Origin: Myxococcales bacterium
GTDB taxonomy: Bacteria > Myxococcota_A > Polyangia > Haliangiales > Haliangiaceae
DNA: 64,000 bases
Assembly (NCBI GenBank): GCA_043753855.1
Contig: JAYUVX010000034.1
Location: 58,860 to 122,859, forward strand
Reading direction: 5' to 3'
In this document: piece by piece, positions 39,548 to 63,564 of the stretch
Position numbering within the stretch: the first letter of the stretch is position 1
Layout of the letters: every line of letters starts with the position of its first letter
Position numbers and translations under genes: made by a program
Notes under the pieces: generated by a model
Databases searched by the model: none
Told to the model about the DNA's origin: nothing
Seen by the model: only the letters and a program-made list of their open reading frames with translations

Positions 39548-40924
39548 TCAGGTCTGCTCGACGAGCTGCGCCGTGATCGACTGGGACGTGCGGCGATACA
39601 CCACCTGCACGTGATCGAGGTACCACGCGATCTCGTCGACGACGCGCAGCAGCTCGGTCCGATTGGCATCCTTCGCCGAGTGCTCGAGCCGGTCACCGAG
39701 GACCGACACGGCGTCGAATCCAAACGTGCCGCCGGAGCCCTTGAGCTTGTGGCCGAACGCCTTGACGGTCGCGAGATCGCCGACGCGCGCGGCCTCGCGA
39801 ACCGGGACGAGCTCGGCCCGGCGATTCTCGAGGAACCGTGGAATGTGCTGGGCCATGTACGGATCGGCGCGGACCACCGGGCAGACCGGCCACGGGCGCC
39901 GGGAGACGACGACCTTGCCGGCAATGTCGGCATCCGAGCACCAGCGATTGCGCCCGCTGTCCTTGGCCCGAAACAGCGCCGCATCAGCGGCGGACACCAG
40001 CGTGGTGGCGGGGCGATCGAGCGAGGGAGCCATCGTGGCAACGCCGGCGCTGATCGTCACGACCGTCGCGCACCGCGAGCGCTCGTGCTCGATCCCGAGC
40101 TCCTCGACCGCGGCTCGCAGCCGCTCGGCGACCGCACACGCACCCGCAGCATCGGTATCCGGAAGCAGCGCGACGAACTCTTCGCCGCCGTACCGCGCCA
40201 GGACGTCCGACGGACGCCGCAGGCAATTGGCCATGGCGGCGGTGACATCCTTCAAGCAGGTGTCGCCACCGAGGTGACTGTAATGCTCGTTGAAGGCGTG
40301 GAAGTCATCGACGTCGACGAGCACCAGCGACAGCGGTGACCCGGGTCGCGAGGCGCGATTCCATTCGCTGCGCAGGAGCTCGTCGAAGTGGCCGCGGTTG
40401 GCAACGCCGGTCAGCGCGTCGATGCAGACCATGCGCTCGAGCTCGCGCGTGGTCTCCTCGAGGCGGTGCGCCTGTGCAGCGAGCTCCGACTCGCGACGGC
40501 TACGGAGCAAGCGCTCGGCCCGCAGGTTGAGCGCCGATCGTGCGCGCGCTCCCAGCTCACCGAGGCGAAATGGCTTGGCGACGTAGTCCTGTGCGCCCGC
40601 CTCGAACGCCACCTGGATCACGGAGTCGTCGCTGCGCGCAGTGATGATGACGACCGGGACCGTCGGCAATAGCTTCGAGAGCTGGCGACAGACCTCGAGC
40701 CCGTCCATGTCCGGGAGCCCGAGATCGAGGAGCACGAGGTCGGGGCCGAGTGCCTGTGCGATCCTGAGGGCTTCGCCGCCCGAGGCGATGAAGCGCACAT
40801 CGTCACACCCCACGTTGTTCAACACATCGCGCACCAGCCCGGACAGCGACGCATCGTCTTCGATCACCAGCGCACGGAACGACGGTGTATCAATCGAGCG
40901 GAGGGGGTTGAGCTGGGCAACCAA
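39548..40924 (-). CDS. Response regulator receiver - GGDEF diguanylate cyclase - HPt fusion protein
   Basis: REC (LVIEDD..LLDLGLPDMDG..KPF), coiled coil, GGDEF (DALTGVANR..RYGGEEF with RxxD-like site), C-terminal HPt (AFGHKLKGSGGTFG). Confidence 0.85.
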   Translation of the reverse strand: MVAQLNPLRSIDTPSFRALVIEDDASLSGLVRDVLNNVGCDDVRFIASGGEALRIAQALGPDLVLLDLGLPDMDGLEVCRQLSKLLPTVPVVIITARSDDSVIQVAFEAGAQDYVAKPFRLGELGARARSALNLRAERLLRSRRESELAAQAHRLEETTRELERMVCIDALTGVANRGHFDELLRSEWNRASRPGSPLSLVLVDVDDFHAFNEHYSHLGGDTCLKDVTAAMANCLRRPSDVLARYGGEEFVALLPDTDAAGACAVAERLRAAVEELGIEHERSRCATVVTISAGVATMAPSLDRPATTLVSAADAALFRAKDSGRNRWCSDADIAGKVVVSRRPWPVCPVVRADPYMAQHIPRFLENRRAELVPVREAARVGDLATVKAFGHKLKGSGGTFGFDAVSVLGDRLEHSAKDANRTELLRVVDEIAWYLDHVQVVYRRTSQSITAQLVEQT

Positions 40925-41635: not shown

Positions 41636-45448
<3,813 letters not shown>

Positions 45449-46449: not shown

Positions 46450-46841
46450 CACGGGCCCGGGTGCAAGGAACATGCGCGATGCGCCAGTGGCCTCGTTTGC
46501 TCGTGCGGCGCGTGTGACCGGCCGAAACGCTGGGCATCGTTCACGCACGTTCACGCTGACTACTGTTCACGACACGGTGCGCTCAGCATAAAAGAGAGTG
46601 GTCAAAGGGCAGGTACGCGTTCGACGTCGGTCAGGCGGTGCATTGTGTCGGGGCTTCATGTGGAACCGATCGCGTGGAGCTGGGGGGGACGAATCTTCCT
46701 TGCGCTGCTCGCTTCGGACGATCCCAGGAGGAAGCTCAACCAGCTGATGTTCGCGGCGGGGCGCGGTGGCGGCGATCGGCGGCTGAGGCAAGCAGGCAAC
46801 GGTGGACCGCCGCGCCGGCCTCTGGCGTAAGCTCGTCGCGC

Positions 46842-48551
46842 GTGCAATCCGAGATCAGGCCAGCGACCGACGCGACGATCGCCGAGCCCACGGCAGGCAA
46901 CGAGGTGACGCGCGACGGGGTGAATCACCTCTCGCACGACAGGCCACCCGCGGTCGCCGCGGCGCTGCACGTCGAGGAGACCTCGCGGACGCACGGATTC
47001 TCGACGGCGGTCGCGGTGATGAGCGCCATCGCGCTCGGGTTCGTGCCGGCGTTCGGCGGCCGGGTCGTCGACGAGGCAGCCTTCATCGCTGCGCTCGTCC
47101 TGGCGCTCGTGACCTCGCTCATCGTTCGCCATCGATGTGCTGATCCGCGACGATACACGAAGCGGGTGTTTCGAATCTTCGGCTTCGTTCTCACAACGAT
47201 CTCGTTCGAGGTCATCTATCGCGTCGGGGTGCTATCGCCGGCGCCGATCGTTCTCACCCTCGGCGTCACCGCGCTCGGTCTCGGACTCGACCGCCGGTTC
47301 GCGCTCGCGATCACGGTGTACGGCATTGCTGGGTATGCGACGCTCGCGTCCCTCGTCGTCGGCGGCACGATCCCGGACGCCGGCTTGATCCGCACCGACG
47401 AGCTGTCCACGGTCGCCAAGATCTTCGGCGTCGTGGTGCCGCCGGTCGTGTTGCTGATCACGCTCGGGCTGGCGCGTCTGTCGCGTCGGACCCTCGAGAG
47501 GGCGGCGACGGACTGTCACGCGGCGCTGCGGCTCGCAAGTCAACAGGAAGCGCTGCTCGCCGAAGCTCACCAGAACCTCGATGACGCACTTCATGTCGGG
47601 GTTCGACGTCGTGGCCCGTGGACGGGGCAGCTAGCCGGTTCGTGGAAGCTGCTCGAGGTCGTCGGCAGCGGAGCCATGGGCGATGTCTACGCAGGGCGGC
47701 ACACCGACACCAACGAGCCAGCGGCCGTGAAGATCTTGCATCACGCGGCTGCGCTCAGCGAGATCTCGATCGAACGCTTCGAACGTGAGGGAAAGATCAC
47801 CAGCGCGCTGCAATCTCCAAACGTCGTGACGGTGTACGAGACCGGACGGATCTCTGCGCTGATCCCGTACCTCGCGATGGAGCTCCTCCAGGGCGAAGAC
47901 CTCGCCCGACTGTTCAGGCGAATCCGGATCCTGCCGCCGGCGGAGGTCCAGGAGCTCGCGCGGCAAGTCGCCTGCGGGCTCGACGCGGCGCACGCGCAGG
48001 GGATCATTCATCGCGATCTCAAGCCGCAGAATCTGTTCCGGGTTGGCGTCGATCGCTGGAAGATCCTCGACTTCGGTGTGTCCACGCTCGCCGGGTCACG
48101 AGGCACGCTGACGCAGGCCGCGCTGGTCGGGACGCCCAGCTACATGGCGCCCGAACAGGCGCGCGCGGAGCGGGTCGATGCGCGATGTGACGTGTTCGCG
48201 CTGGGCGCGGTGCTGTACCGAGCCATCGTTGGTCGGCAAGCCTTCGGCGCGCCCAACACGCCGCAGGTCCTGTTCAACGTTGTCTACCGGATGCCACCCC
48301 GCCCTGGAGAGCTCGTCGATCGGATTCCACCGGATGTCGACTCGGTCCTCGCGCTCGCGCTTGCCAAGCGGCGCGACGACCGCTTCGCGACCGCCGGTGA
48401 GCTATCCCGGTCGTTGGCCGCGGCATATCGCCACGCGATCGCCCCCGAGCTTCGCGTGCGTGCAGAGCTGGTGTTGCGCAAGCATCCGTGGGGACAAGCG
48501 ATCTCACTCGACCACGAACACCGCACCAACCGGCTCCCTCATCCGCGCTGA
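46842..48551 (+). CDS. Ser/Thr protein kinase with N-terminal multi-TM domain
   Basis: About 6 TM helices and a coiled coil, then the kinase (GSGAMGDVYAG, AVKIL, HRDLKPQNLF, DFGVS, GTPSYMAPEQ). Start uncertain: GTG 46842 or ATG 46638. Confidence 0.85.
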   Translation: MQSEIRPATDATIAEPTAGNEVTRDGVNHLSHDRPPAVAAALHVEETSRTHGFSTAVAVMSAIALGFVPAFGGRVVDEAAFIAALVLALVTSLIVRHRCADPRRYTKRVFRIFGFVLTTISFEVIYRVGVLSPAPIVLTLGVTALGLGLDRRFALAITVYGIAGYATLASLVVGGTIPDAGLIRTDELSTVAKIFGVVVPPVVLLITLGLARLSRRTLERAATDCHAALRLASQQEALLAEAHQNLDDALHVGVRRRGPWTGQLAGSWKLLEVVGSGAMGDVYAGRHTDTNEPAAVKILHHAAALSEISIERFEREGKITSALQSPNVVTVYETGRISALIPYLAMELLQGEDLARLFRRIRILPPAEVQELARQVACGLDAAHAQGIIHRDLKPQNLFRVGVDRWKILDFGVSTLAGSRGTLTQAALVGTPSYMAPEQARAERVDARCDVFALGAVLYRAIVGRQAFGAPNTPQVLFNVVYRMPPRPGELVDRIPPDVDSVLALALAKRRDDRFATAGELSRSLAAAYRHAIAPELRVRAELVLRKHPWGQAISLDHEHRTNRLPHPR

Positions 48552-49271
48552 CCCGAGGGTGCGTGCATAGGCACGCTCGGTCGCGTCTCGCAGCGACGAA
48601 CAGCTCCCGAACAGGCCGTGGAGAATCATGTGATAGCGGGTCTGGCGACTCTCGTTGACGACGTGATGAACATGACTGAGGTCGAGGAGGAACGCCGCGC
48701 CCGTGCGCATCGGGAGGACGCCATCGCCCAACGTGAAGCGGCAACCGTCGGGCATGTTCAGCACGACGTTGAGGCCGATCATGCTCGGGAGCTTCCAGTC
48801 CGTATGTGGCGCGACGTATCCGCCCGGATCGAGAGCCATGTAGCGCGTCCGAAACAACGTCGCGCCCGCGAACCTGGCTGCACACCAGCGCTGCGTCTGC
48901 GGCGCACGCTCCGCGACCTCGTCGCACCAGCGGTACGGGGCCGCCAGGTCCGATGCGTAGCCATACGTGCGAGCGCCTTGCGTGTGGCTCGCTGATAGAC
49001 CGCGAAGACACAGCGCTCTCCATCCGCGGTGTTCATACTCGCCGTCGCGGTGGGGGACGAAGCGCTCGTCGAGCGCGATGGCCTCCTCGATCAACTCCGG
49101 CGGAACCGCGAGGTCGATCTCGAGGTACGGCAGTCCGCCGCGGAAGATGATCCAATAGTACGAACCGGGCGTCGCGAGGTCGTCTCGCAGGATCGCGAGC
49201 TCCCGATGCTGGGCGGGCAAGCCAAATGCTCGCTGGAAGTGGGCGATCAGGTCGGCGTCGGTCATTTGCAT
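48504..49271 (-). CDS. Aspartyl/asparaginyl beta-hydroxylase-like Fe(II)/2-oxoglutarate oxygenase (cupin)
   Basis: GGYVAPHTDW..LNVVLNMP..FLLDLSHVHHVVNESRQTRYHMIL matches the AspH/LpxO-type pattern PH.D..H.V.N.S..R. GAGGAA SD precedes the start, 1 nt after the upstream stop. Confidence 0.7.
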   Translation of the reverse strand: MQMTDADLIAHFQRAFGLPAQHRELAILRDDLATPGSYYWIIFRGGLPYLEIDLAVPPELIEEAIALDERFVPHRDGEYEHRGWRALCLRGLSASHTQGARTYGYASDLAAPYRWCDEVAERAPQTQRWCAARFAGATLFRTRYMALDPGGYVAPHTDWKLPSMIGLNVVLNMPDGCRFTLGDGVLPMRTGAAFLLDLSHVHHVVNESRQTRYHMILHGLFGSCSSLRDATERAYARTLGSARMREPVGAVFVVE

Positions 49272-49272
49272 C

Positions 49273-50769
49273 TCAGGTTCCTCGTGTGGAGAACAGCGCG
49301 GCCGCGGCCAAGCCAAGCCGCAGCAGCAAGAGGCGAGCCTCGAGCTGGTCGACGGCGGGCAGCGCTCGCACGAACGCGGGACGGAAGTGTGCCAGGATCC
49401 GCCGCTCGCCCAGCACGAGCTCGACGAGCTGCTGTTGCAACCGGGGGTCGCCGAGCGCGGCGACGTAGTCAACCGTGACGCCATAGGACCTCGCGGGTGG
49501 CTCTTCGGGGCGGTCAGGGTTCGCGGCCAGGTGGGCGCGTCGCTCGGCGCGCCACTCGACCGGCAAGCGGCGGTGCAACTCGACGAGGTCGACGTCGTGG
49601 AACGGCGTGACGACGCTGCGCACGCTCGCCATCAGCGCGCGGTTGATGTTCCACAGCACGAAGCGGTTCTCGAGCGAGACCCGTTCGAGGCACGCACCCA
49701 GCGACTCGTCGCCGCGTGGGGCTGCGACCGCGAGGATCTCCTCGACGGCCTGCGTCGCCGGTCCGCGCAGATCATCGAGCATGTTCGCCTTCAGCAGCGG
49801 GGTCAGGGACACGATCTTGTTCGCGACCACGCGCTGCGCGATCCACCACGGTAGCGATTCGACATCATCTGGAGCGGCCGCGACGACGTGAGGCTCCCAG
49901 CCGTGGGTCCCCAGCCACAGCCCGCCCGCCGGGAGGTCCTGCAGAGGCCGCGGGCCCATCGGCAAGGTCGCGAACGTGTTCTCGCTTGGATCTGCCACGA
50001 CGTTCGCCCACTCGACCATCGCGGTGACGGCATCGCGAAAGTCGACGCCGATGACGTGGTGCTTGACCGCTGCTCCGGAAGTCAACCTGCGCGCGGCGAT
50101 CACATCACCCGCCGTGTCGGGGCCAAACGTGACCGCCTCGAGCGGAACCCCTCGCTCGCGCGCGCGTCTCCACATCGCACGTGAATCGACACCGCCCGAG
50201 AGCAAGAGCAGGATCGGCGTCCGCGCGTTCGAGATGGCACGCTCGACCGCCACATCCTCCGCGCCGGCGAGATCGCGGGGATCAGCATCGGCCGGTTCGT
50301 CGTCGGGGAACTGCCAGTATCGGGAGCTCGCTCCGGTGGCGAGGTCGAACCAGGTGCCGGGCGGAAGCCGCTGCACGCCCTCGAACAAGGTGCGTGTGCT
50401 CGGGATGTGGCCGAACGTGAGGAGGGAGCAGAGGGCTGTCGGATCCATCGGATGTCCGCGCTCGACGAGCCGCGCTGGGTTGGACGCCACGGCTCCTCCA
50501 CGGCGATAGGCGAGTCGGGATCCGAGGCGGTCTGTGGCGACCTTTGTGCCGTGCGTTACGACGAACGAGCCGTCGTACGCGGACAGCCGGTCGTCACGGT
50601 CGAACCTCGGCTTGGGGCCCGTGCGGTGAGTGACCGGACCGGAGAACGTCAAGGCGTTGACTGGCGTGGGACTGGCCTTCGCCGACGTCTCCTCCGCTCT
50701 GTTGACCTGCGCAACGCTCGCGTTGCTGCGCGCCCCATGTTCTTGGGGCTTACCATTGAGGAAGCTCAT
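49273..50769 (-). CDS. Asparagine synthetase B-like ATP-dependent (PP-loop) enzyme without glutaminase nucleophile
   Basis: LLLSGGVDS PP-loop and AsnB-type linker LLTFGHIPSTRTLFEGVQRLPPGTWF. The N-terminus is MSFLNGK.. (no Cys2), and only about 100 aa precede the synthetase domain. Confidence 0.75.
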   Translation of the reverse strand: MSFLNGKPQEHGARSNASVAQVNRAEETSAKASPTPVNALTFSGPVTHRTGPKPRFDRDDRLSAYDGSFVVTHGTKVATDRLGSRLAYRRGGAVASNPARLVERGHPMDPTALCSLLTFGHIPSTRTLFEGVQRLPPGTWFDLATGASSRYWQFPDDEPADADPRDLAGAEDVAVERAISNARTPILLLLSGGVDSRAMWRRARERGVPLEAVTFGPDTAGDVIAARRLTSGAAVKHHVIGVDFRDAVTAMVEWANVVADPSENTFATLPMGPRPLQDLPAGGLWLGTHGWEPHVVAAAPDDVESLPWWIAQRVVANKIVSLTPLLKANMLDDLRGPATQAVEEILAVAAPRGDESLGACLERVSLENRFVLWNINRALMASVRSVVTPFHDVDLVELHRRLPVEWRAERRAHLAANPDRPEEPPARSYGVTVDYVAALGDPRLQQQLVELVLGERRILAHFRPAFVRALPAVDQLEARLLLLRLGLAAAALFSTRGT

Positions 50770-50990: not shown

Positions 50991-51006
50991 TGGCGCGGCG
51001 CTTGCT
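50991..51006 (+). promoter_or_regulatory. Sigma-54-type -24/-12 promoter candidate (TGGCGC-N5-TTGCT)
   Basis: 10 of 11 consensus positions of TGGCAC-N5-TTGCW, with the GG and GC doublets correctly spaced. 17 nt upstream of the precursor ATG. A sigma-54 activator gene is in the same array. Confidence 0.45.
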
Positions 51007-51022: not shown

Positions 51023-51199
51023 ATGAACAAGAACATTGCATCGAACCCCATCAACCAGTCCGAAGTCACCTCCACCAACGAGGAGCTGCCGGTCGCCGCT
51101 GAGTCTGCCGAGGAGCTCTCGGCCGAGGATCTGCGCAAGGCACTCGGCGGCGCGGGCCCGTCGAGGAACGTCGCGACCTGCGGCGACTACAACCTCTAG
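51023..51199 (+). CDS. Candidate RiPP precursor peptide (58 aa) with double-glycine leader
   Basis: MNKNIASNPINQSEVTSTNEELPVAAESAEELSAEDLRKALGG/AGPSRNVATCGDYNL. The leader matches LSxxELxxIxGG. High GC3. Sits directly upstream of the modifying-enzyme genes. Confidence 0.65.
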   Translation: MNKNIASNPINQSEVTSTNEELPVAAESAEELSAEDLRKALGGAGPSRNVATCGDYNL

Positions 51200-51236
51200 C
51201 CAGCTCTCGCCAACTGTAGGCAACCTGATCGCGCCC

Positions 51237-51272
51237 CCCTCGTAGGCCTCTTCTCAGCCGGACCTGCGAGGG
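51237..51272 (+). terminator. Stem-loop after the precursor gene (10-bp stem, 16-nt loop), candidate partial terminator or attenuator
   Basis: ccctcgtagg (51237-51246) pairs with cctgcgaggg (51263-51272), with one G-U pair. No T-tract. Confidence 0.35.
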
Positions 51273-51327
51273 CGGGCATCTCACCGGCTCTAGCCCGCGC
51301 GCGAAGGCGATACTTCGCACCCATTTT

Positions 51328-51828
51328 ATGATCCGCCCAATCACCGACCATGACGCCGCCTCGTTCGTAGCGCTTTCGATCGCGCTTGATAGCGAGACCG
51401 AATACATGCTGTTCGAGCCAGGAGAGCGCACGCTCACCGTCGAAGACCAGCGCCGGCGAATCGCGACGATCCAGGCGGGGACCACGCAGGTCGTGCTTGT
51501 TGCCGACGACGATTCCAGCATCGTGGGATTTGTCGGCGCCTCGCGGGGCGCTGCACGCCGGAACAAACACTCCGCGAGCTTCGTGATCGGTGTCCTCGCG
51601 GCACACGCTCGCCGCGGCATCGGAACGGCGCTCCTCGTCGAGCTCGAGGCGTGGGCGCGCCGCACGGACGTGCACCGACTCGAGTTGACCGTGATCGAGC
51701 AGAACGAGCGCGCCCGCGCTCTGTACGTGAAGCAGGGATTTCAGGTCGAGGGGCGAAAACGGCACTCGCTGCAGATCGCCGGCCGCTGGGTCGACGAGGT
51801 CGCGATGGCCAAACTACTCGCGGAGTGA
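51328..51828 (+). CDS. GNAT family N-acetyltransferase
   Basis: Acetyl-CoA-binding motif A region ARRGIGTALLVELEAWA and ELTVIEQNERARALYVKQGF. 166 aa. Confidence 0.85.
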   Translation: MIRPITDHDAASFVALSIALDSETEYMLFEPGERTLTVEDQRRRIATIQAGTTQVVLVADDDSSIVGFVGASRGAARRNKHSASFVIGVLAAHARRGIGTALLVELEAWARRTDVHRLELTVIEQNERARALYVKQGFQVEGRKRHSLQIAGRWVDEVAMAKLLAE

Positions 51829-51832
51829 CTTC

Positions 51833-52924
51833 ATGCAACTCGGCATCGGCTTCAATCCACGTTACTTGACAGGCGAGCTGACGTGTCCAAGCAACGCGTC
51901 GTACCTGGAAGCCGGGGCGAGCTTGCTGCTCGCGTCGCCTACCTTGCCGGCGGTCTTCTCGGCGATCCGGGAGACTTCACTCCACCTCTCGCGCGCACCC
52001 TTCTGCGAGGCGCCTGCTGTCCAGGAGCGCTTCGCGGCGAAGCTCGCGGCCCGCCTGCCGGCCACGGTGTCGTCGGTCGGACTCCACCTCGGAGGCCCCT
52101 ACGCGACGGACCTCGGCTTCTTCGGGCTGGGGACCGCCTATCTCCCGACCCCCGACAACGAGCGCCGCGCGCGGCATCTGCTCGAGCTGTTGATCGACGC
52201 GACCGGACGCCGCGTGCTGATCGAGAACGCGAACTACTACGATCAGACGCTGGGGCAGGCCGCGGCCACCTTGGCGACCCAGAATCGCCTGTGCGAATGC
52301 CCCGGGGTCGGGCTGATCCTCGACCTCTCGCACCTCACGATGGGAGCGCACAACCTCGGCGTCGCGCCCGACTTCTTGCTCGGGATGATCGACCTCGAGA
52401 AGGTAGCCGTGATCCACTTGTCGGGAATCTCGGAAGGCCGAGATGGCGCCTATCATGACGGGCATCAGCTGCCGGTCCATCCTCGCGTGTGGGAGCTGCT
52501 GGATCGTACGCTCGCGGTCATCGGCCGGCCGGTGACGCTGGTGCTCGAGCACTCGGATCCACGCTGGACGAACGCCAACGCTGGCTTCGCGCGAGACTGG
52601 GATCAGCTCCGCGCGGCGTCGGTAGCGCCAGCGCCACGCCTGCCGGCGTTCCCGATCGATCCGGACCAGGTCGCGATCGGATACATGGCGAACGTGGTCC
52701 TTCCACAACGCTTGCCTGCCGTGCATGCCGAGCTCGGTCGGCCGGCATTCGATGCGCTCGTGCGCGCCTGGGCTCCGGCGTACCTCCACCGCGTTCGCAG
52801 CCAACCGCAAGCGACCGTGGTGTTGCGCGAGGACGAGCGAGATTTCTACGGTGGCATGCTCCACGACCCCGTGGCGGACTTCGTCGGCGAGTTGCAGCGC
52901 CGAGCGGGGGTGGAGACATGCTGA
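51833..52924 (+). CDS. DUF692 / MNIO (multinuclear non-haem iron oxidase) family enzyme with about 100-aa C-terminal extension
   Basis: Motif series SLHLS, GLHLGG, VLIENANYY, LILDLSHL, VIHLSG, YHDGHQLPV, LVLEHSD parallels the MbnB/TglH ligands. The extension ..LPQRLPAVHAELGRPAFDALVRAWAPAY.. resembles a DUF2063 partner N-domain. Confidence 0.75.
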   Translation: MQLGIGFNPRYLTGELTCPSNASYLEAGASLLLASPTLPAVFSAIRETSLHLSRAPFCEAPAVQERFAAKLAARLPATVSSVGLHLGGPYATDLGFFGLGTAYLPTPDNERRARHLLELLIDATGRRVLIENANYYDQTLGQAAATLATQNRLCECPGVGLILDLSHLTMGAHNLGVAPDFLLGMIDLEKVAVIHLSGISEGRDGAYHDGHQLPVHPRVWELLDRTLAVIGRPVTLVLEHSDPRWTNANAGFARDWDQLRAASVAPAPRLPAFPIDPDQVAIGYMANVVLPQRLPAVHAELGRPAFDALVRAWAPAYLHRVRSQPQATVVLREDERDFYGGMLHDPVADFVGELQRRAGVETC

Positions 52925-54160: not shown

Positions 54161-55890
<1,730 letters not shown>

Positions 55891-55894
<4 letters not shown>

Positions 55895-57057
55895 GCTGCT
55901 TTCTCGACGATGTATTCCGATACGTCAGCATGACCGGTGGGGATCTGGCTCGACTCTCGGAGCTGCATCACGTGCTGGAGCCCGAGTTCCCGGCGATCGC
56001 CGAGCAGTTCTACCAGGCCGTCCTCGAGGACCCACGGACCGCGGCGATCCTGTCGGGTCCCGACCAGGTCCAGCGGCTTCGCATGTCGCTGATCGACTGG
56101 ATGTCGACGGGATTGCTCGGCCCCCACGACGAGAAGTTTTACGACAAGCGGTCGCGGATCGGCCGCCGCCACGTCCAGATCGGACTCGCACAGGAGTACA
56201 TGTTCACCGGCATGACGGTGGTCCGGCTCGCCTACCAGGAGCGCATCTTCGCCGCGTTTCCAGGCGCTGCCGCCGCGGCTCCACTCGCCGCCGTCAACAA
56301 GCTGCTCGATGTCGAGCTCGCGATCATGGTGCGCCACTACCAGCTCGATACCGAATCCCGGCTGGTCCACCGCGAGCGCCATGCGCTCTCCGATCGGCTC
56401 CTCGCGATGCAGACGCTGACCGCGGGGCTCGCACACGAGGTCAGAAACCCGCTCAACGCGGCGAAGCTTCAGCTCGAGCTCCTCGATCGCCGGCTGCGCC
56501 GCGAGCACGATGATCCGAGGTTCACCGAGCCAAGCTCGCTCGCGAGTCAGGAGATGGAGCGGCTCACCAGGCTGCTCAACGACTTCCTCGCCTTCGCCCG
56601 TCCACCCGAGCTCAACCTCGAGGAGCGCGACATTGCGGAGCTCGTACGTCATGTCTACGAGGTGGAGCGGCCCGGTGCGGAGAAGCACGGTGCGGCTTTC
56701 GAGCTCGTGGTCAGTCCGGCTCATCTGACGGCGAAGGTCGACGCGCCGAAACTCCACCAGATCGTCGCCAACATCATCCGCAACGCGATCGAAGCCGTGC
56801 CTCCGGGCGGGCATGTCACCGTCGAGCTCGAGGGCTCGCACGAGTCGTTCACGCTCCGGGTCCACGACGATGGTCCGGGAATCAGCGAAGCGGTGAAGAC
56901 GCGGATCTACGAGCCGTTCTTCTCCACGAAGGAGAGCGGCACCGGGCTCGGGATGTCGATCGTATATTCGCTGGTCACCCTGCACGGCGGAGCGATCGCG
57001 ATCGACACCAACGACCGCGGCACGCGGTTCGACGTCACGATCCCGCGCCGTCAGTGA
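55891..57057 (+). CDS. Globin-coupled sensor histidine kinase
   Basis: N-terminal protoglobin-type sensor (EQFYQAVLEDP with distal Tyr, IGRRHVQIGL with proximal His), HisKA H-box LAHEVRNPLN, HATPase N/G boxes (NAIEA, DDGPGI, GTGLGM). GTGA overlap with the activator gene. Confidence 0.8.
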
Positions 57058-57839
57058 GCTTCGACGGTGGCGTTCTCGAGCATCACCGCGTACGCGTAGC
57101 CCGCGCCAAAGTCCTTGTTGCGCGCCACGGTGCCCCGCATCGCGACCACCTGCCCGAGCGTCAACGTAGCCTCGGTCGTCAGCGTCAAATCGCCGCTGCC
57201 GTCCTGTAGATGGACCCAGTTGTGGCCGAGGATGCCGTTGTTCACCTTGACGACCTTGCCGCGCACGAGCACGGCGGTGCCCGCCGCACTGCCCTTGTCG
57301 CTGGCGAGGGACGCGATGGTCAGGCCGCCGGCCGGTGGTGCGATGGGCTGGACCTTCGCGGCCATCGCCGGGACGCTCGGAGGAGCTGGAGCCGGTGCAG
57401 CGCCGTCGATCGGAAATGACGAGATGAAGTAGATCTCGTCGAACGTGCGCTTCAGCGTGGTGCTCTGGAAGCTCGTCATCAGCGAGCCGGTGACGCTCCC
57501 GATCCGCGTCCCCACGGCGAGCTTGGTCTCCGGCCCGGCGACCCACACCATGGTCCCGCCGTGGTCGAGCTTGGCGTAGGTGTAGCCCCCCGAGTCCATG
57601 GTCTCGACGACGGTGCCGGAGACGCCCTGGCCCCCGGGCGCAGCCGCGGCAGGAGATTCCATCGGATCGATCGGACCCGGCGCGCTCGGCGTTGCGGTGC
57701 GCATCGGTGGCGGCGCGGACCCCGGCGATGCCTGCAGGGCCGTGAGCTCGCCGGTGGCAGGTGCGGGGGCGCCGGCGGTTCGTGAGTCGCGCGTGCAGGC
57801 GGCGAGTGCGAGTGCGAGCAGTACGTGGCGGATCAGCAT
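57051..57839 (-). CDS. Lipoprotein with two OB-fold-like domains, last gene of the cbb3 maturation operon
   Basis: Lipobox LALAACT and a Pro/Ala linker. GTVVETMDSGGYTYAKLD.. and GKVVKVNNGILGHNWVHLQDGSG. Starts 13 nt after the ccoS stop. Confidence 0.6.
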   Translation of the reverse strand: MLIRHVLLALALAACTRDSRTAGAPAPATGELTALQASPGSAPPPMRTATPSAPGPIDPMESPAAAAPGGQGVSGTVVETMDSGGYTYAKLDHGGTMVWVAGPETKLAVGTRIGSVTGSLMTSFQSTTLKRTFDEIYFISSFPIDGAAPAPAPPSVPAMAAKVQPIAPPAGGLTIASLASDKGSAAGTAVLVRGKVVKVNNGILGHNWVHLQDGSGDLTLTTEATLTLGQVVAMRGTVARNKDFGAGYAYAVMLENATVEAH

Positions 57840-57851
57840 GAGTCAAAGGTA

Positions 57852-58031
57852 CTAGGAGGAAGGCGGAAGACGAGGGTCCCGCGCAGGAACAGGTGGGTCG
57901 TCGAACAGGATACGCCGAGGAGGCGTATCGACGTCGTCGAGCTGACCGGAACGCACCGTCCAGATGAAGGCTGCAACTGCCGCGCCAGCGACGAGCAGGG
58001 CGAGCGGCAACACGATGTAGAGCGAGATCAC
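57852..58031 (-). CDS. ccoS: cbb3-type cytochrome oxidase assembly protein CcoS
   Basis: Not in the ORF track (59 aa). Hand translation: [45 protein letters not shown]... The GTG overlaps the ccoI stop (GTGA). Confidence 0.8.
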
Positions 58032-60424
58032 GAGGTCCTCCGGAACGCTCGCGACCGCAGCGAGCTGGCGAGCACCGTCAGCGAGCTGAGCGGCATCACG
58101 AGTGCGGCGATCAACGGATGAATAACTCCGACCACCGCGAGCGTCCCGGCGGTCAGGTTGTAGATCAAGGACAGGCGCAGGTTGCGGCGAATTGTCGCGA
58201 GCGTCGCGCGTGCGCCGGCAACCGTCGCGGCGATGTCACCGATCGCCGGCGAGCGCAGGTAGACGTCCGCGGTCTCGATCGCGATCTCGGCCGAGCCAGC
58301 GACCGCGATCCCGGCGGTGGCTGCTGCCATCGCCGCCGCATCGTTGACACCATCGCCCACCATCACCACCGGGCCCGCGAGCCGTCGCTCGACGACCCGG
58401 GCCACCTTGTCCTCGGGGCTCGCTCCGCCGTGACAGCGATCGGCGGGGATCCCGAGCGCAGCTCCTATGCGCCGCGCCACCCGCGCGTCGTCGCCGGACA
58501 GCAGCTCGAGCTGCCAGCCCGCCGCGGTGAGCTCGTCGAGCGCGGCTTTTGCGTCGGGACGGATCGGATCCGCCAGCCCCGCAACGGCGACCGCGCGCTG
58601 ATCGACGGCGATCACGATCGGAGTCTCGCCGCGCTCGGCGACCTCTGCGATCCATGCCTCGATCCCGGGATGACACGACGTTCGCGCGCGCACCCACGGC
58701 GGCGCACCGACGATCACCTCGTGACCCCCGACCAGACCGGCGATGCCGCGACCGAGCTCCTCCTCGATCTGGAGGGCCACGAGTGGTGAGGTCGCGTGAG
58801 CTCGCAACGCGCGCGCGATCGGATGATCACTCCCCGCCTCGACGGCCACCGCGAGCCCGACCGCATCGACATCGCCGCGCCAGGAGACCACGGCGAGCTT
58901 GCCGGCGGTCAGCGTGCCGGTCTTGTCGACGAACATCGTGCCCGGGGTCGCGAGCCGCTCGAGCGCATCGGCACCCTTGATCAGCACGCCCCGTTTCGCC
59001 GCACGGCCGAGGGCCACGGTGACGGCGAGCGGCGTGGCGAGTGCGAGTGCGCACGGACACGTGACGATCAGCAGGGCCATCGCATTCTCGGCGCCGACCT
59101 CGAGCGACACCGCCGCCGTCCACGCCAGCAACGTGATCAAGGCCGCGAACGTCACGATCTTCACGAACTGGCCGGCGATCTGATCGACCAGCCGCTCGAT
59201 CGGCGCCTTGCGTGCGGACATCGCCTCGATCGCGGCCACCAGCCGACCGATCCGCGTGGTCTCGCCGATCGCGGTCGCACGGATGATCAACGGTGCCGCC
59301 AGGTTCGCGGTGCCGGCGTTCACCGGATCTCCAGCGGAGACCTCGATCGGCCGCGACTCGCCGGTCAGCAGCCCGACATCGAGCGCCGAACGACCCTCGA
59401 CGATCACGCCATCGACCGGGATGACGTCGCCGACGAGGACCTTGACGAGATCGCCGGGCACGATCGCTTCGATCGGCACCTCGACGACGACGACGCCATC
59501 GATCCGTCGCGCGCGACCCGGCGTCAGGGCGAGCAGCAGCTCGGCGGAGGTCGACGCGCGTCGCTGGTGACGCAGCACGACCCAGCGGGCGACCAGCAGC
59601 AGGAACACCAGCATCGCGAGGCTGTCGAAGTAGATCTCGCCGGTGCCGCGCAGCACGTTTGCCGAGCCCCAGCCGAGACCGGCGAGGATCCCGATCGAGA
59701 GCGGCAGGTCGAGGTGGAGCCGGCGCGCGCGGAGTGCACCGATCGCGGTGCGGAACATCGGGGTCGCCGCGTAGCCGAGCCCGGGCACCGCGACCAGCAT
59801 CGAGTACCAGCGGAACAACGTCGCATCGGCGCGCGCCATCCCGCCGAACAGTCCGCAGTACAGCGCGATCGAGAGCAGCATGAGGTTGCCCATCGCGGCC
59901 CCCGCCACGCCGAGCTTCGCGAGCAGCGCGCGATCCTCCTTGCGTCGCGCCCCATCGCGGTCGAGCCCACGGTACGGATGCGGCGGATGGCCGACGCCGT
60001 CGAGGAACCGGGCGATCGTCGACAGCGACACCGCGCGCGGATCCCACGTCACATCTGCCCGGCTCCGCCCCAGATCGACGCGGACCTCCAGCGTGCCGGG
60101 CACGCACCGCGGCGCACTCTCGACCAGCCAGATGCAGGCGGTGCATCTCAGATCCTCGAGGTAGAGCGCCGCGTGTGCCATGCCGCTCGCGGCGAGCTGG
60201 ACATGCACGCGCTGAAACGCCGGATCATCGAGCTCGGAGTACGCGCGCCCGGTCGCGTTCGCGGGTGCGGCGTCCTCGCGGAGCGCATAGAACTGCTCGA
60301 GCCCGTTGGCCCTGATCGCGGTGTAGACCACCTCGCAGCCGCTGCAGCAGAACTCCGCACGGCCCACGGGCACCGGGAGGCCGCAGTGGATACACGGAGC
60401 GAGCTGCGCCAGCGCCGCCGTCAC
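58028..60424 (-). CDS. ccoI: Heavy-metal (copper) translocating P1B-type ATPase CcoI/FixI
   Basis: N-terminal [30 protein letters not shown], phosphorylation site [20 protein letters not shown]. The GTG start overlaps the upstream stop. Confidence 0.9.
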
Positions 60425-61110
60425 GTACCGGCCTTGGCATGGCAATGCGGAGCCGTCACACCGCCGGGGCCCGCGTCGCGCCACCGGCTCGCGAGCGTGA
60501 CGAGGCCGAGCGCGATCAGCACGCACGCCGTGATCACCGGCAGCCGGCCGCGCAGCCGAGCGAGCAGCGGTCCTGCGATCGCGAGCACGCCGGTCATCGC
60601 CGGCACGGTACCGAGCCAGAACACCAGCATCACCAGCGCACCCGACGCCGCGTGGCCGGTCCCCGCAGCGGTGACGACGAATGCCCATAGCCATCCGCAT
60701 GGCAACAGGCCCGTGAGCACGCCGATCAAGGCTGCGCGGGTCACCGCACGTCGACCACGCAGCTGGACGAGCCCGCGCTGAAACAGCACGCCGCTCTGCG
60801 CGGGTCCACGTAGCCAGCCGCGCGCCACCGCGATCGCATGGACACCCCAGCCGACGATCATCAGTCCCGAGACGATGGTGGCGACGTGCTGCACGCTCGC
60901 GAGGTCACCCGCCAGATCGACGGCGCCACCGACGAGGCCTGCGATCGTGCCGAGCACCACGTAGGTCGCCAGCCGCCCGAGCGAATGAACGAGCGCGAGC
61001 CGGATCGATCGCGCGCCGCCGTGCATGCCGACCAGCGGACCGCACATCGCCACGCAGTGCACGCTGCCGATCAAGCTCGATACGAAGATCGTGGCAGCGA
61101 GCGCGCTCAT
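60421..61110 (-). CDS. TauE/SafE-like (DsbD_2-type) membrane protein of cbb3 clusters
   Basis: N-terminal GSVHCVAMCGPL motif, 6 TM helices, second Cys pair LLPCGW. Start/stop overlaps on both sides. Confidence 0.65.
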   Translation of the reverse strand: MSALAATIFVSSLIGSVHCVAMCGPLVGMHGGARSIRLALVHSLGRLATYVVLGTIAGLVGGAVDLAGDLASVQHVATIVSGLMIVGWGVHAIAVARGWLRGPAQSGVLFQRGLVQLRGRRAVTRAALIGVLTGLLPCGWLWAFVVTAAGTGHAASGALVMLVFWLGTVPAMTGVLAIAGPLLARLRGRLPVITACVLIALGLVTLASRWRDAGPGGVTAPHCHAKAGT

Positions 61111-61556
61111 CGTGCATCCACCTGCAGCCGGCGGACATAGCGCTTGCCCGCGCGGTCGACTGCAATCACGAGATCGTGCACGCCCGGTGTGCGATCGCCT
61201 TGGCCGCGGTATGCGCCCGCGCCTGCAGCGACCAGCTGCACGTCGAGCCGCTCGTGCGCCCGTGCACGCGGATAGCCGGTCACCCGCACCTGCGCCTCCG
61301 AGAGTGGCGCACCCGTTGCATCGCGTGCCGAGATCACGAGCTCGCCATCGACCAGGGTCGCATCCACGCGCCAGCCAAGCGCGCGGCTCGCCGTGGCCTC
61401 CGCCAGTGTGTCGTCATAGTGCGCTGCCTGCTGGTAATAGTCGGGGATCACCTCCGAGGATCCGACGCTCGCCACGGTCGCAAGGATCACCATCGCGGTC
61501 ACGTTGCCGGCGAGCAGCACGACGATCGCGAGGACCCAGCGGCGAGCCGGCGTCAT
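61107..61556 (-). CDS. ccoH: FixH/CcoH family protein
   Basis: Single N-terminal TM, then IPDYYQQAAHYD.. and a beta-rich periplasmic domain. Located between ccoG and ccoI. Confidence 0.75.
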   Translation of the reverse strand: MTPARRWVLAIVVLLAGNVTAMVILATVASVGSSEVIPDYYQQAAHYDDTLAEATASRALGWRVDATLVDGELVISARDATGAPLSEAQVRVTGYPRARAHERLDVQLVAAGAGAYRGQGDRTPGVHDLVIAVDRAGKRYVRRLQVDAR

Positions 61557-62938
61557 GGCGTCCCCCGCTCCGGACCGAGCAGCGTGACCGAGACGATCCG
61601 CTCGAACCCGGAGCTGTCGTTGATCCGGAGCTGGACAGAGCGCTTGCCCTTCACGAACGAGCTCGGCGCCGCGTCCACGAACAGCGGCACGTCGATCGAG
61701 TGGCGCGACTTAACCTGCCAGCTCGGCTGTACCGAGCGCAGCGTCGCGTCGGGCGCTCCGACCAGCGAGATCGAGTAGCCACGGGACTCGTCGGTCTCGT
61801 TCTCGATCTTGAGCTGCACGCGCGCGGCGATCCGGCCATCTGACAGCTCGACGAAGCTCGGACCACTCAGCCGCTCGACCCAGACCTCGGCGAGCGGCTT
61901 GGTGCCGACCGACCAGATGAACAGGCCCGACACCGTCGCGAGCAGCAGCGGATAGATCACGGTGCGCAGGCGCAGCACCTTGCGAGGCTTGCCCGCGAGC
62001 TGATCACTCGACGTGTAGCCGATCAGATGACGCGCCTGCCCGGTCTTGTCCATGACAGTGTCGCAGGCGTCGGCACACTGCGCGCAACCGATGCACTCCA
62101 TCTGCAGACCCTTCCGGATATCGATGCCGGTCGGGCACACGTCGACACAGGCGCCGCAATCGACGCACGCCCCGCGCTCGGTCACGACCGGCAGCTTGTG
62201 CTTCGGCTTGGACCGCGGCTCGCCGCGCGTCACGTCGTACGCGATGATCAGCGATTGCTTGTCGAGTAGCACCGTCTGCAGGCGCCCGTACGGGCACGCC
62301 ACGATGCACATCTGCTCGCGGAAATAGGCGAAGTCGAACAGCATGAGCGCGGACACGCCGAACACCACCGCGAAGCCACCGAGGTGGTCGAGCGGTGAGC
62401 CCCACACCCAGCGTTCGAGTCGTTCCGTACCGACGAAGTACGCCAGGAACACGTTGGCGAGTACGAACGACAAGGCCGCGTAGATCATCCACTTGATCAT
62501 CCGGCGCCAGTGGAACCGCGGCAGCTTGGCCTGCTGTGCCGCATTGCCCTCGATCCAGCGCTCGATCGGGCGGAACACCAGCTCCAGATAGACGGTCTGC
62601 GGGCACCCCCAGCCGCACCACACGCGGCCGAACAGCGCGGTGACCAGGAACACCAGCAGGACGATGGTCAACCCGAGCAGCATCAGCACGAAACCATCGG
62701 ACGGTCGGAACACGGCGCCGAACGCGGAGACCTCGCGCGAGATCAGATCGATCAGTAGCGCGGGGCGACCGCCGATCCGGATCCGCGGCAGCAGCACGAA
62801 CAGGATGATCAGCGCCACACCGACGATCCGTCGGCCGCGCAGGAACCTGCCGCGGGCGAGCCGCGGGCTCAGCCAGTGCCGCGTGCCATCGGCGTTGAGA
62901 GTCGACAGCACCCGCGCGCCCGCGATCGGAGGAGTCAT
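61553..62938 (-). CDS. ccoG: Cytochrome c oxidase accessory protein CcoG/FixG (2x[4Fe-4S])
   Basis: WCGWGCPQTV, CIVACPYGR, CVDCGACVDVCP, CIGCAQCADAC. Start at the internal ATG, overlapping the ccoP stop (ATGA). Confidence 0.9.
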   Translation of the reverse strand: MTPPIAGARVLSTLNADGTRHWLSPRLARGRFLRGRRIVGVALIILFVLLPRIRIGGRPALLIDLISREVSAFGAVFRPSDGFVLMLLGLTIVLLVFLVTALFGRVWCGWGCPQTVYLELVFRPIERWIEGNAAQQAKLPRFHWRRMIKWMIYAALSFVLANVFLAYFVGTERLERWVWGSPLDHLGGFAVVFGVSALMLFDFAYFREQMCIVACPYGRLQTVLLDKQSLIIAYDVTRGEPRSKPKHKLPVVTERGACVDCGACVDVCPTGIDIRKGLQMECIGCAQCADACDTVMDKTGQARHLIGYTSSDQLAGKPRKVLRLRTVIYPLLLATVSGLFIWSVGTKPLAEVWVERLSGPSFVELSDGRIAARVQLKIENETDESRGYSISLVGAPDATLRSVQPSWQVKSRHSIDVPLFVDAAPSSFVKGKRSVQLRINDSSGFERIVSVTLLGPERGTP

Positions 62939-63564
62939 GGCGCGAACGCCTCGACGGGCTCTCCCTGCGACGCCTTCCCACCATCGAGGTTCGTGCCACG
63001 CAGCGTGGTGACATATGCGACGACGTCGAGGATGTCGGCGGCGGGGAGCTGCTCGCCCCACGCGATCATCGCAGTGCCGCTCACGCCGTCGTGCACCGTG
63101 TGGAACATGTCCATCCGGGTCGTGCCGTGCAGCTGGAAGTTATCGGTGAGGTTGGGCCCGATCAGGCCGCGACCTCCCGCCGCGTGGCAGGCGATGCACT
63201 TGGTCGCGAACACGGCGGCTCCGTGCTCGACCAGCTTGCCGTCCTGCGCGTTGCGGGCGAGCGCGGCCTCGGTGACGTGAGCAGCCTCCGCCTGATCACG
63301 CATGCTCTTCTTGTCGTTGAACTCCGCGAGCTCGGAGACATAGCGCTGCTGCGGCGTAGTGCCCCAGTTGGCGATGTGGAAATAGAAGCCGTACATCGCG
63401 GCGAACACGATCGAACCGATGAAGATCGCCGACCACCAACCGGGTAGCGGGTTGTCGTACTCGTGGATTCCGTCGTAGGAGTGATCCATGAGGCGCGGCT
63501 CGGCCGGCTCGGTGGTGTCCTGCGGTGCCTCGACCGCCGAGGGAGTTGCATGCGCGACGCTCAT
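62935..63564 (-). CDS. ccoP: cbb3-type cytochrome c oxidase subunit III (CcoP), mono-haem form
   Basis: N-terminal DGIHEYDNPLPGWW motif and TM helix. Only one CXXCH (CIACH) in 209 aa. Confidence 0.85.
   Translation of the reverse strand: MSVAHATPSAVEAPQDTTEPAEPRLMDHSYDGIHEYDNPLPGWWSAIFIGSIVFAAMYGFYFHIANWGTTPQQRYVSELAEFNDKKSMRDQAEAAHVTEAALARNAQDGKLVEHGAAVFATKCIACHAAGGRGLIGPNLTDNFQLHGTTRMDMFHTVHDGVSGTAMIAWGEQLPAADILDVVAYVTTLRGTNLDGGKASQGEPVEAFAP

Follow-up and report, generated by a model that had tools for sequence, protein, structure and literature searches.

A small open reading frame in a Myxococcales bacterium probably encodes a ribosomal peptide precursor of the mov type (Group V methanobactin-like) with a double-glycine leader

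The subject of this analysis is an open reading frame at positions 51023–51199 (+) of a 64,000 nucleotide stretch of contig JAYUVX010000034.1 from a Myxococcales bacterium (the whole stretch is termed the window). It is a real small gene, and its product is probably the precursor for a ribosomal peptide of the mov type (Group V methanobactin-like), with a proposed heterocycle, a tyrosine amide and cleavage of the leader after a double glycine (GG). An earlier note on this DNA had placed the open reading frame at this position, and this is confirmed. The translated product is MNKNIASNPINQSEVTSTNEELPVAAESAEELSAEDLRKALGG (leader) followed by AGPSRNVATCGDYNL (core). The core contains one Cys, one Asp, two Asn and one Tyr, in agreement with the composition first reported for it, and its tail is ...VATCGDYNL. 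[quoted passage not shown] The features are as follows.

51023–51199 (+): precursor open reading frame, 58 aa, ATG at 51023, stop codon at 51197–51199
51023–51151 (+): leader peptide, 43 aa, double-glycine type, C-terminal end LSAEDLRKALGG
51152–51199 (+): core peptide AGPSRNVATCGDYNL and stop codon, with the conserved TCGDYNL at 51176–51196
51328–51828 (+): GNAT N-acetyltransferase, 166 aa, found next to every GG-leader precursor detected
51833–52924 (+): MNIO 1, 363 aa, PF05114, MovX-like; TIM-barrel MNIO with a conserved C-terminal domain of about 90 aa
52927–53715 (+): MNIO 2, 262 aa, PF05114, MbnB-like, TIGR04159 score 158 bits
53712–54110 (+): 132-aa protein, overlapping and translationally coupled to MNIO 2, in the position of MbnC

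Group V operons are described as having the order MbnA, a DUF692-like open reading frame, MbnB and a divergent third protein (Kenney and Rosenzweig 2013, PMC3621798). The Vibrio caribbenthicus precursor VcMbnA is MKNDKKVVVKVKDKEMTCGAFNK; after modification of its Cys18 by VcMbnBC, this peptide binds Cu2+ (Dou et al. 2022, PMC8888699). For MovX, two later papers (Table 1 of PMC12452194; PMC12257519) describe cleavage of the N-Cα bond of an Asn, which leaves a C-terminal amide, with no separate partner protein. Within the parts of the MNIO literature covered here, the mov operon of Vibrio is the one system that has two MNIOs together with a single-Cys precursor. To our knowledge, mov is the only system in which an MNIO is known to cut the backbone at Asn to give a C-terminal amide, so far with 23-residue precursors in Vibrio-type operons. 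A study by Chioti et al. 2024 is said to concern the mov operon and Group V methanobactin-like RiPPs (peptides made on the ribosome and modified after translation).

A word-indexed protein search with the 58-aa peptide gave the peptide itself as the sole match. The family was therefore recovered through the adjacent 363-aa MNIO. MNIO 1 has about 16 close relatives with 38%–66% identity, nearly all of them metagenomic. Its homologues (27%–66% identity) have a small open reading frame upstream with a C-terminal TCG[DS]YN, and the gene order on the contigs of the relatives is small open reading frame, GNAT, MNIO, MNIO, and a protein of about 120–156 aa. A scan of species-representative genomes adds two metagenome-assembled genomes (MAGs), from Halothece and Nannocystales. 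Equivalent small open reading frames are present in 12 related loci; 11 of these end in TCG[DS]YN plus one or two residues, and the remaining one (Nannocystales MAG, locus L017) ends in TCGDYIITVA. Myxococcota, Cyanobacteria, Beta- and Gammaproteobacteria are represented. In every case the genes after the precursor encode a MovX-like MNIO, an MbnB-like MNIO and a third protein of small size. Conservation of the open reading frame and of its GG motif in syntenic loci had been named beforehand as the point on which the prediction could fail; the small open reading frames are found in the 12 loci and the GG motif in six of them, and the prediction holds. The C-terminal parts of eight related precursors are listed below, a slash marking the predicted cut after GG.

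L009: ...ISAEELREVIGG/YAVHEQAMTCGDYNI
L012: ...ISAEELREVTGG/YQSHQQAMTCGDYNI
L006: ...IDIETLREIVGG/GGGAVLLPSTATTCGSYNV
L004: ...ISVEQLEEVVGG/ASYS...VKMTCGSYNI
L017 (Nannocystales MAG, L017:9717–9893): ...LDTAVLQAVVGG/ARAAAPAVPVSAPATCGDYIITVA
L013: ...RRHDFMTCGDYNL
L014: ...GSEASTCGDYNLH
L016: ...NQPATCGSYNIL

The T, C, G and Y residues are invariant in the window and in these eight loci (L004, L006, L009, L012, L013, L014, L016, L017), and T, C and G are invariant in 13 of 13 precursors when VcMbnA is included. The near-terminal Asn (Asn57 of 58 in the window) is kept in 12 of the 13, the exception being TCGDYIITVA of L017. The TCGDYNL of the window aligns residue for residue with TCGAFNK of VcMbnA. 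Thus, in the aligned sequences, the C-terminal TCG[DS]YN(x) is shown to be invariant or nearly so over 13 precursors from very different bacteria. Residues conserved in this way appear to be under selection and are therefore likely to be recognized by the enzymes.

MNIO 1 is placed by its sequence as MovX-like and homologous to the Vibrio-type counterpart. Its metal ligands (H51, H85, E131, D164, H195, D209, H211, E239) are all invariant. When 1.84 billion representatives were searched by HMMER with a profile of MNIO 1, a discrete clade emerged, with 86 members at E-value = 1e-30 or less; the members are about 350–385 aa long and are matched end to end, after which there is a sharp drop to generic MNIOs at about 1e-19. 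The clade includes the second-tier members P0056, P0044 and P0035, whose operons have TCGSYN precursors of 23–50 aa and PF27805 MbnC-like genes, with MatE in two of the three.

P0056 (L019, marine metagenome): precursor MDKSKKVVVEVNDREMTCGSYNK, 23 aa, not called as a gene, L019:7871–7939; then MbnB-like, PF27805 MbnC-like and MatE genes
P0044 (L021, Ca. Thiodiazotropha): precursor MEKKQLIEIDDIEVTTDYHSTCGSYNL, 27 aa, L021:7838–7921; then MbnB-like, PF27805 MbnC-like and MatE genes
P0035 (L018, Chitinimonas): precursor ...LQETELLEVNGG/NRKLPQEIIRFIDDATCGSYNL; then MbnB-like, MbnC-like and GNAT genes

It should be noted that the L019 and L021 precursors are both uncalled in public annotations and are recovered by a TCG[DSA][YF]N sequence near a stop codon.

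The MbnB and MbnC of L019 match the crystal-structure chains of V. caribbenthicus (VcMbnB and VcMbnC) with E-values of 2.5e-91 and 9.5e-31. L019 is therefore taken as a close relative of the characterized operon, and P0056 stands in for MovX; the orthology of MNIO 1 and V. caribbenthicus MovX is drawn through this proxy. MNIO 1 and P0056 show 32% identity by BLASTP (E-value = 6e-47), and P0056 matches the MNIO 1 profile at 6e-61. Full-length profile and MAFFT alignments of the two proteins span the C-terminal domain, with Y284, W313 and F350 conserved. An AlphaFold2 model of MNIO 1 (pLDDT 91.7) shows helices at 277–322 and a small beta/alpha unit at 327–357. According to two papers (PMC12452194, PMC12257519), MovX carries an additional winged-helix domain. 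Foldseek with the whole MNIO 1 chain gave TIM-barrel matches only, TglH and MbnB being the best, and a tblastn search of plasmids with MNIO 1 gave generic DUF692 matches only.

MNIO 2 has MbnB as its best family match, although its TIGR04159 score of 158 bits is below the equivalog cut-off of 325. It aligns over its whole length with the PDB entries 7tcr (7e-33) and 7dz9 (2.6e-21), and its iron ligands (H54, H90, E133, D163, H192, D208, H210, E239) are all aligned to identical MbnB residues. The identity with the MbnB of the Vibrio-type operon L019 is 32%. The single Cys of the core had been put forward as the MNIO target; homology agrees with this, given the match of MNIO 2 to MbnB at 7e-33, the retained ligands and the modification of Cys18 in the Vibrio peptide.

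Four of the defining features of the mov family are found here: a single Cys in a Thr-Cys dyad near the C-terminus, a penultimate Asn, an MbnB-type MNIO with its ligands, and a MovX-type MNIO between the precursor and the MbnB-type gene. Two further features of the family, an MbnC-like/RRE partner after MbnB and a short precursor of about 23 aa with a MATE exporter, are present in L019 and L021 and were not found in the window.

The leader was first described as a textbook double-glycine leader that matches LSxxELxxIxGG position by position. The leader end LSAEDLRKALGG agrees with it at five of the seven specified positions and deviates at two, where –8 is D in place of E and –4 is A in place of I; a near-consensus GG leader is thus retained, and the position-by-position match is not. 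No frame of the six has a match to the strict LSxxELxxIxGG. When the pattern is relaxed to the family form [LIVM][SD]xx[EDQT]Lxx[IVLA]xGG, there is one match in all six frames, located here, against 0.04 expected from codon shuffles. In the window leader, –7 and –12 are Leu, –11 is Ser and –8/–9 are acidic. A leader of the form ...ExLxE[VI]xGG occurs, in addition to the window, in six of the 12 other loci (L004, L006, L009, L012, L017 and L018; the leader ends are the segments to the left of the slashes above). The alignments thus show a predicted double-glycine leader in about half of the family, and GG and TCG are separated by 8 to about 40 residues.

Double-glycine leaders are processed by ABC transporters that contain a peptidase (PCATs, LahT being one of them; PMC6363468). 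In L004 and L006 a PF03412 C39-ABC exporter and an HlyD-type adaptor are directly beside the operon. The window was searched by tblastn with queries from related loci, namely an ABC protein and two each of the C39-ABC exporters and HlyD adaptors; there was no C39, ABC or HlyD match at E-value = 1 or less, and the sole transporter in Pfam scans of the larger window open reading frames is an MFS protein about 30 kb away. The absence of a C39-peptidase ABC exporter from the window, as previously reported, is borne out by these tblastn and Pfam scans. The pairing of a GG leader with MNIO-modified cargo is not described in the MNIO surveys consulted.

By analogy with the characterized Vibrio system, the reactions of MNIO 2 and MNIO 1 are most likely the following. 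MNIO 2, whose probable partner is the 132-aa protein, would oxidize the Thr52-Cys53 dyad by four electrons to an oxazolone/thioamide or to the isomeric 5-thiooxazole (–4 Da). MNIO 1 would then cleave the N-Cα bond of the penultimate Asn57, which would drop the last residue(s) and leave Tyr56-NH2. The 43-aa leader would be cut after Gly43, and the C39-peptidase ABC exporter responsible would have its gene in another part of the genome, outside the window. This predicts AGPSRNVA-(Thr/Cys heterocycle)-Gly-Asp-Tyr-NH2 as the product, which the conserved GNAT may acetylate and which may, like VcMbnA in its modified form, be a metal (Cu) ligand. The earlier note had also proposed the Asp and Asn residues as substrates of AspH-like and AsnB-like enzymes. 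This proposal is unsupported, the genes concerned being absent from the related loci; for the conserved penultimate Asn, the best explanation is that the MovX-like MNIO 1 acts on it, an AsnB-like enzyme being the poorer one. In the main the interpretation given in the note is supported, although it did not identify the family as the Group V methanobactin-like (mov) one.

The frame itself has a coding signal. The GC content at codon positions 1/2/3 is 0.58/0.46/0.88, so the high third-position GC (GC3) noted before holds on measurement; GC3 of the downstream genes is 0.81–0.84. The automatic public gene call P0001 (69 aa) takes GTG 50990 as the start. This start was rejected: it adjoins, on the upstream side, a sigma54-type promoter match at 50991–51006, and the N-termini of the homologues are MN[KED]... 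The ATG at 51023 is preferred because GTG 50990 precedes the inferred transcription start and because the homologues begin with MN[KED].

Several observations weigh against the assignment to the mov family or against parts of the proposed pathway. There is no Shine-Dalgarno sequence before the precursor ATG at 51023 and the inferred 5′ untranslated region is about 6 nt, which is a caveat for translation efficiency. The residue at leader position –4 is Ala and not a large hydrophobic residue. The 64-kb window has no C39 exporter, MATE exporter or obvious protease by tblastn and by Pfam scans of the larger open reading frames. The 132-aa family has no detectable MbnC similarity (hhalign probability 0.05% against the MbnC-like proteins of L018, L019 and L022), and the single-sequence structure model of the 132-aa protein (pLDDT 38) is unusable. 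Even for MovA the assignment of the heterocycle is contested (oxazolone/thioamide versus 5-thiooxazole). L017 has a GG-leader precursor that lacks the conserved Asn and has a longer tail, yet a MovX-like MNIO (35% identity) is present. Asn cleavage is therefore not universal in the clade, and the MovX-like MNIO of L017 may do something else.

Three other explanations of the locus were weighed. The open reading frame could be a chance open frame in GC-rich intergenic DNA that is not translated, and the missing Shine-Dalgarno sequence, the lack of any Pfam or NCBIfam model match to the precursor and the word search that finds only the open reading frame itself would fit this. The GC3 of 0.88 does not, and 12 independent loci keep a small open reading frame with the same position and C-terminal motif although the DNA and the leaders diverge; a chance frame appears effectively refuted by this conservation. 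A different explanation accepts the precursor family and holds that GG is not a C39/PCAT site in this organism, the peptide being processed or exported by another protease or route, with GG as a linker or enzyme-recognition element. The window without a C39, ABC or HlyD gene is in line with this, as are the Ala at –4, the use of MatE by family members that lack GG, and the Chitinimonas locus L018, which has a GG leader and PmbA/TldD upstream and no nearby ABC exporter. Against it, the double-glycine pattern (hydrophobic –7/–12, acidic –8/–9) precedes GG in seven loci, and in two loci a C39-ABC exporter and HlyD adaptor are directly beside the operon. The distance from GG to TCG is variable (8 to about 40 residues), which would be expected of a leader/core junction and not of an enzyme-recognition spacer. 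This explanation is considered unlikely. A related observation is that L018:1–1302 (Chitinimonas sp. BJB300) is a PmbA/TldD-family protease gene a few kb upstream of the GG-leader mov-like operon, and it could be an alternative route for leader removal.

The third explanation concerns the chemistry. Next to the operon are genes for an asparagine-synthase-like enzyme (AS-like) and an Asp/Asn beta-hydroxylase-like protein (AspH-like), and together with the MNIOs they could carry out non-mov reactions: nitrilobacillin-type beta-hydroxy-Asp and a C-terminal nitrile, an AS-like macrolactam, or Tyr/Asp oxidation. In nitrilobacillin (pes) clusters an MNIO is combined with another, MNIO-like protein, with a partner and with a nitrile synthetase that is AS-like, and the site of action is a C-terminal ...DN motif (PMC13060819). 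D-Y-N is found close to the C-terminus of the window core, the PP-loop is retained in the AS-like gene, and MNIOs are known to hydroxylate Asp and Phe. On the other side, pes precursors end in R(V/T)DN without Cys and not in TCGxYN, the degenerate MNIO PesX lacks iron ligands, and M16 proteases are used (PMC13060819), whereas both window MNIOs keep their ligands and are homologous to MovX and MbnB of Vibrio-type operons. The AS-like and AspH-like genes are in no related locus and would at most add locus-specific tailoring on top of mov chemistry. A nitrilobacillin-type assignment was rejected on these grounds (core TCGDYNL and not R(V/T)DN, iron ligands in both MNIOs, AS-like gene absent from related loci), and non-mov chemistry in general is regarded as quite improbable. 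An assignment to the canonical methanobactins (Groups I–IV) was also rejected, in view of the one Cys, the absence of an MbnC match, and the TIGR04159 score of 158 bits against the cut-off of 325. A mov-type precursor is thus the preferred reading of the open reading frame.

The 132-aa protein at the end of the operon is conserved in eight related loci. The family is about 120–156 aa in length and is always found after the MbnB-like gene in long-leader operons (relatives include L004:11871–12272, L006:2867–3307, L008:2038–2403, L012:2844–3218, L015:2294–2692 and L017:11920–12390). Conserved positions include Y16, W31, P34-L35, L57-W58 and G97-P98. The protein has no Pfam (including PF27805) or NCBIfam match, and no PDB match as a single sequence or as a profile. 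By its operon position it is a putative MNIO partner or leader-binding protein. The family is a candidate new MNIO partner family because it is conserved after the MbnB-like gene and is without Pfam, PDB or hhalign similarity to MbnC.

The GNAT has relatives with 38%–70% identity in L004, L006, L008, L009, L012, L015 and L017, and PF00583 GNAT genes are present in L014 and L018. It accompanies all GG-leader precursors found, and that of L014, and the MatE operons with short leaders lack it. It may serve to N-acetylate the product or in self-protection.

The neighbouring genes were correctly described at the outset as two PF05114 MNIOs, a GNAT, an Asn_synthase-like and an Asp_Arg_Hydrox-like gene. 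The last two are:

49273–50769 (–): highly divergent asparagine-synthase-like adenylating enzyme with the PP-loop LSGGVDS and no N-terminal glutaminase domain or nucleophile, transcribed divergently from the precursor
48504–49271 (–): Asp/Asn beta-hydroxylase-like (Asp_Arg_Hydrox-like) protein, translationally coupled to the AS-like gene

Neither gene is found in any of the related loci, and in L009 and L012 the operon has unrelated genes on its upstream side. They have no PDB sequence relative at E-value = 0.1 or less, and a metagenome scan gave only two fragments of 28% identity and no close relative. Their membership in the pathway is uncertain; they may provide locus-specific tailoring or be unrelated neighbours.

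Expression of the precursor is probably driven by the sigma54-type promoter and the adjacent FHA-type activator. The elements concerned are:

50991–51006 (+): sigma54-type promoter match TGGCGCGGCGCTTGCT (–24 GG / –12 GC), ending 17 nt before the precursor ATG
51233–51277 (+): imperfect GC-rich stem-loop between the precursor stop and the GNAT start, folding z-score –1.81
54161–55894 (+): FHA-domain sigma54-dependent activator, directly after the RiPP operon

Exact matches to TGGCRC-N5-TTGCW number three in the window against 0.18 expected, at 50991–51006 (+), 57972–57987 (–) and 61305–61320 (+). In the closest relatives, L009 and L012, a similar TGG-N9-TGC element is located about 33 nt ahead of the start codon of the precursor, and a Shine-Dalgarno sequence comes after it. 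The FHA-type activator is a plausible candidate regulator of the 50991 promoter. The stem-loop, weakly supported by its folding score, is at a typical position for a RiPP-operon attenuator and may be one.

Other observations on the neighbourhood are as follows. The 57972–57987 (–) match is upstream of a 262-aa open reading frame at 57051–57839 (–) that has no Pfam match. A protoglobin-HisKA-HATPase sensor kinase gene at 55891–57057 (+) overlaps the FHA activator gene; these two could make up a regulatory module together with a Ser/Thr kinase at 46638–48551, which flanks the cluster at its opposite end. Positions 58028–63564 (–) contain cbb3-type oxidase maturation genes: a P-type ATPase with ATPase-cat_bd (CcoI-like), DsbD_2, FixG/CcoG and FixP/CcoP. 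A copper-enzyme assembly locus is thus about 4 kb from a methanobactin-like cluster, which may be a coincidence. A response-regulator-GGDEF-Hpt protein (39548–40924, –) and a 1270-aa Ser/Thr kinase with AAA_16 (41636–45448, +) are encoded further away. The window is 68% G+C and is rich in Ser/Thr kinases and sigma54 activators, which points to a probable myxobacterial origin.

The relatives show that, in other phyla, a long double-glycine leader, a GNAT and a non-MbnC third protein go together with the two-MNIO module and the invariant TCGxYN core, with a PCAT in two loci. It is conceivable, though rather doubtful, that the GG-leader operons with GNAT and 132-aa partner form a distinct PCAT-exported mov branch in Myxococcota and some other phyla, with a third protein that is a new MNIO partner unrelated to MbnC, tailoring possibly added by the AS-like and AspH-like enzymes, and, as the product, a metal-binding or bioactive peptide without precedent whose expression is under sigma54/FHA-kinase control. 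If this were true, the tailoring could be e.g. beta-hydroxylation of Asp55 together with dehydration of the MovX-made amide to a nitrile, or a lactam. The signature TCG[DSA][YF]N-x at the C-terminus can be used for mining unannotated precursors. Substrates with longer leaders would be convenient for the study of MovX-type amidation and of the disputed oxazolone/thiooxazole question, and the 132-aa proteins point to a candidate new family of MNIO partners. A long double-glycine leader in the mov family is not described in the literature surveyed, and the MNIO surveys consulted mention no PCAT-linked or myxobacterial members; the similarity network of the original mov paper may already include them.

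Four comparisons with known systems can be made. Like the window, the nitrilobacillin clusters combine an MNIO with another protein of the MNIO fold, and the two also share a small partner, an asparagine-synthetase-like enzyme and a C-terminal Asp/Asn motif. They differ in that the window core ends in TCGDYNL with a Cys, both MNIOs keep their ligands, and the AS-like gene is not conserved with the operon. The leaders of class II bacteriocins, lanthipeptides and cyanobactin-like peptides share with the window leader the GG end, Leu at –7/–12, Ser at –11 and acidic residues at –8/–9, and two syntenic loci have a PF03412 C39-ABC gene. Unlike the classic double-glycine leaders, that of the window has Ala at –4 and Asp at –8, has no PCAT gene in the window, and carries a predicted MNIO-modified peptide as cargo. 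Canonical methanobactins (Groups I–IV, MbnABC) have in common with this locus an MbnB-type MNIO and a Cys before a small residue, and the modified peptide of a Group V relative binds Cu2+. The window precursor has one Cys and not two or more, there is an extra MovX-type MNIO, and there is no TIGR04160 MbnC, MbnM/MbnT/MbnPH or TonB-dependent importer.

The mov operons of V. caribbenthicus and Photorhabdus have the same order of precursor, MovX-type MNIO, MbnB-type MNIO and small third protein, and the same single Cys in Thr-Cys-Gly followed by an x-aromatic-Asn-x C-terminus; both window MNIOs are homologous to the Vibrio-type counterparts with all iron ligands kept. The window precursor, however, is 58 aa long with a 43-aa double-glycine leader, whereas that of Vibrio is 23 aa with a short Lys-rich leader. 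The window operon has an inserted GNAT, and its third protein is not recognizably MbnC-like (PF27805). MatE is lacking in the window, and two relatives (L004, L006) have C39-ABC/HlyD genes instead. In addition, an AS-like/AspH-like pair is located alongside, and the host is not a Vibrio, its DNA being 68% G+C. On the evidence of the alignments, the locus is a member of the mov/Group V lineage by the four defining features given above, and it departs from the known members in the type and length of its leader, its export logic, its GNAT and its third protein.

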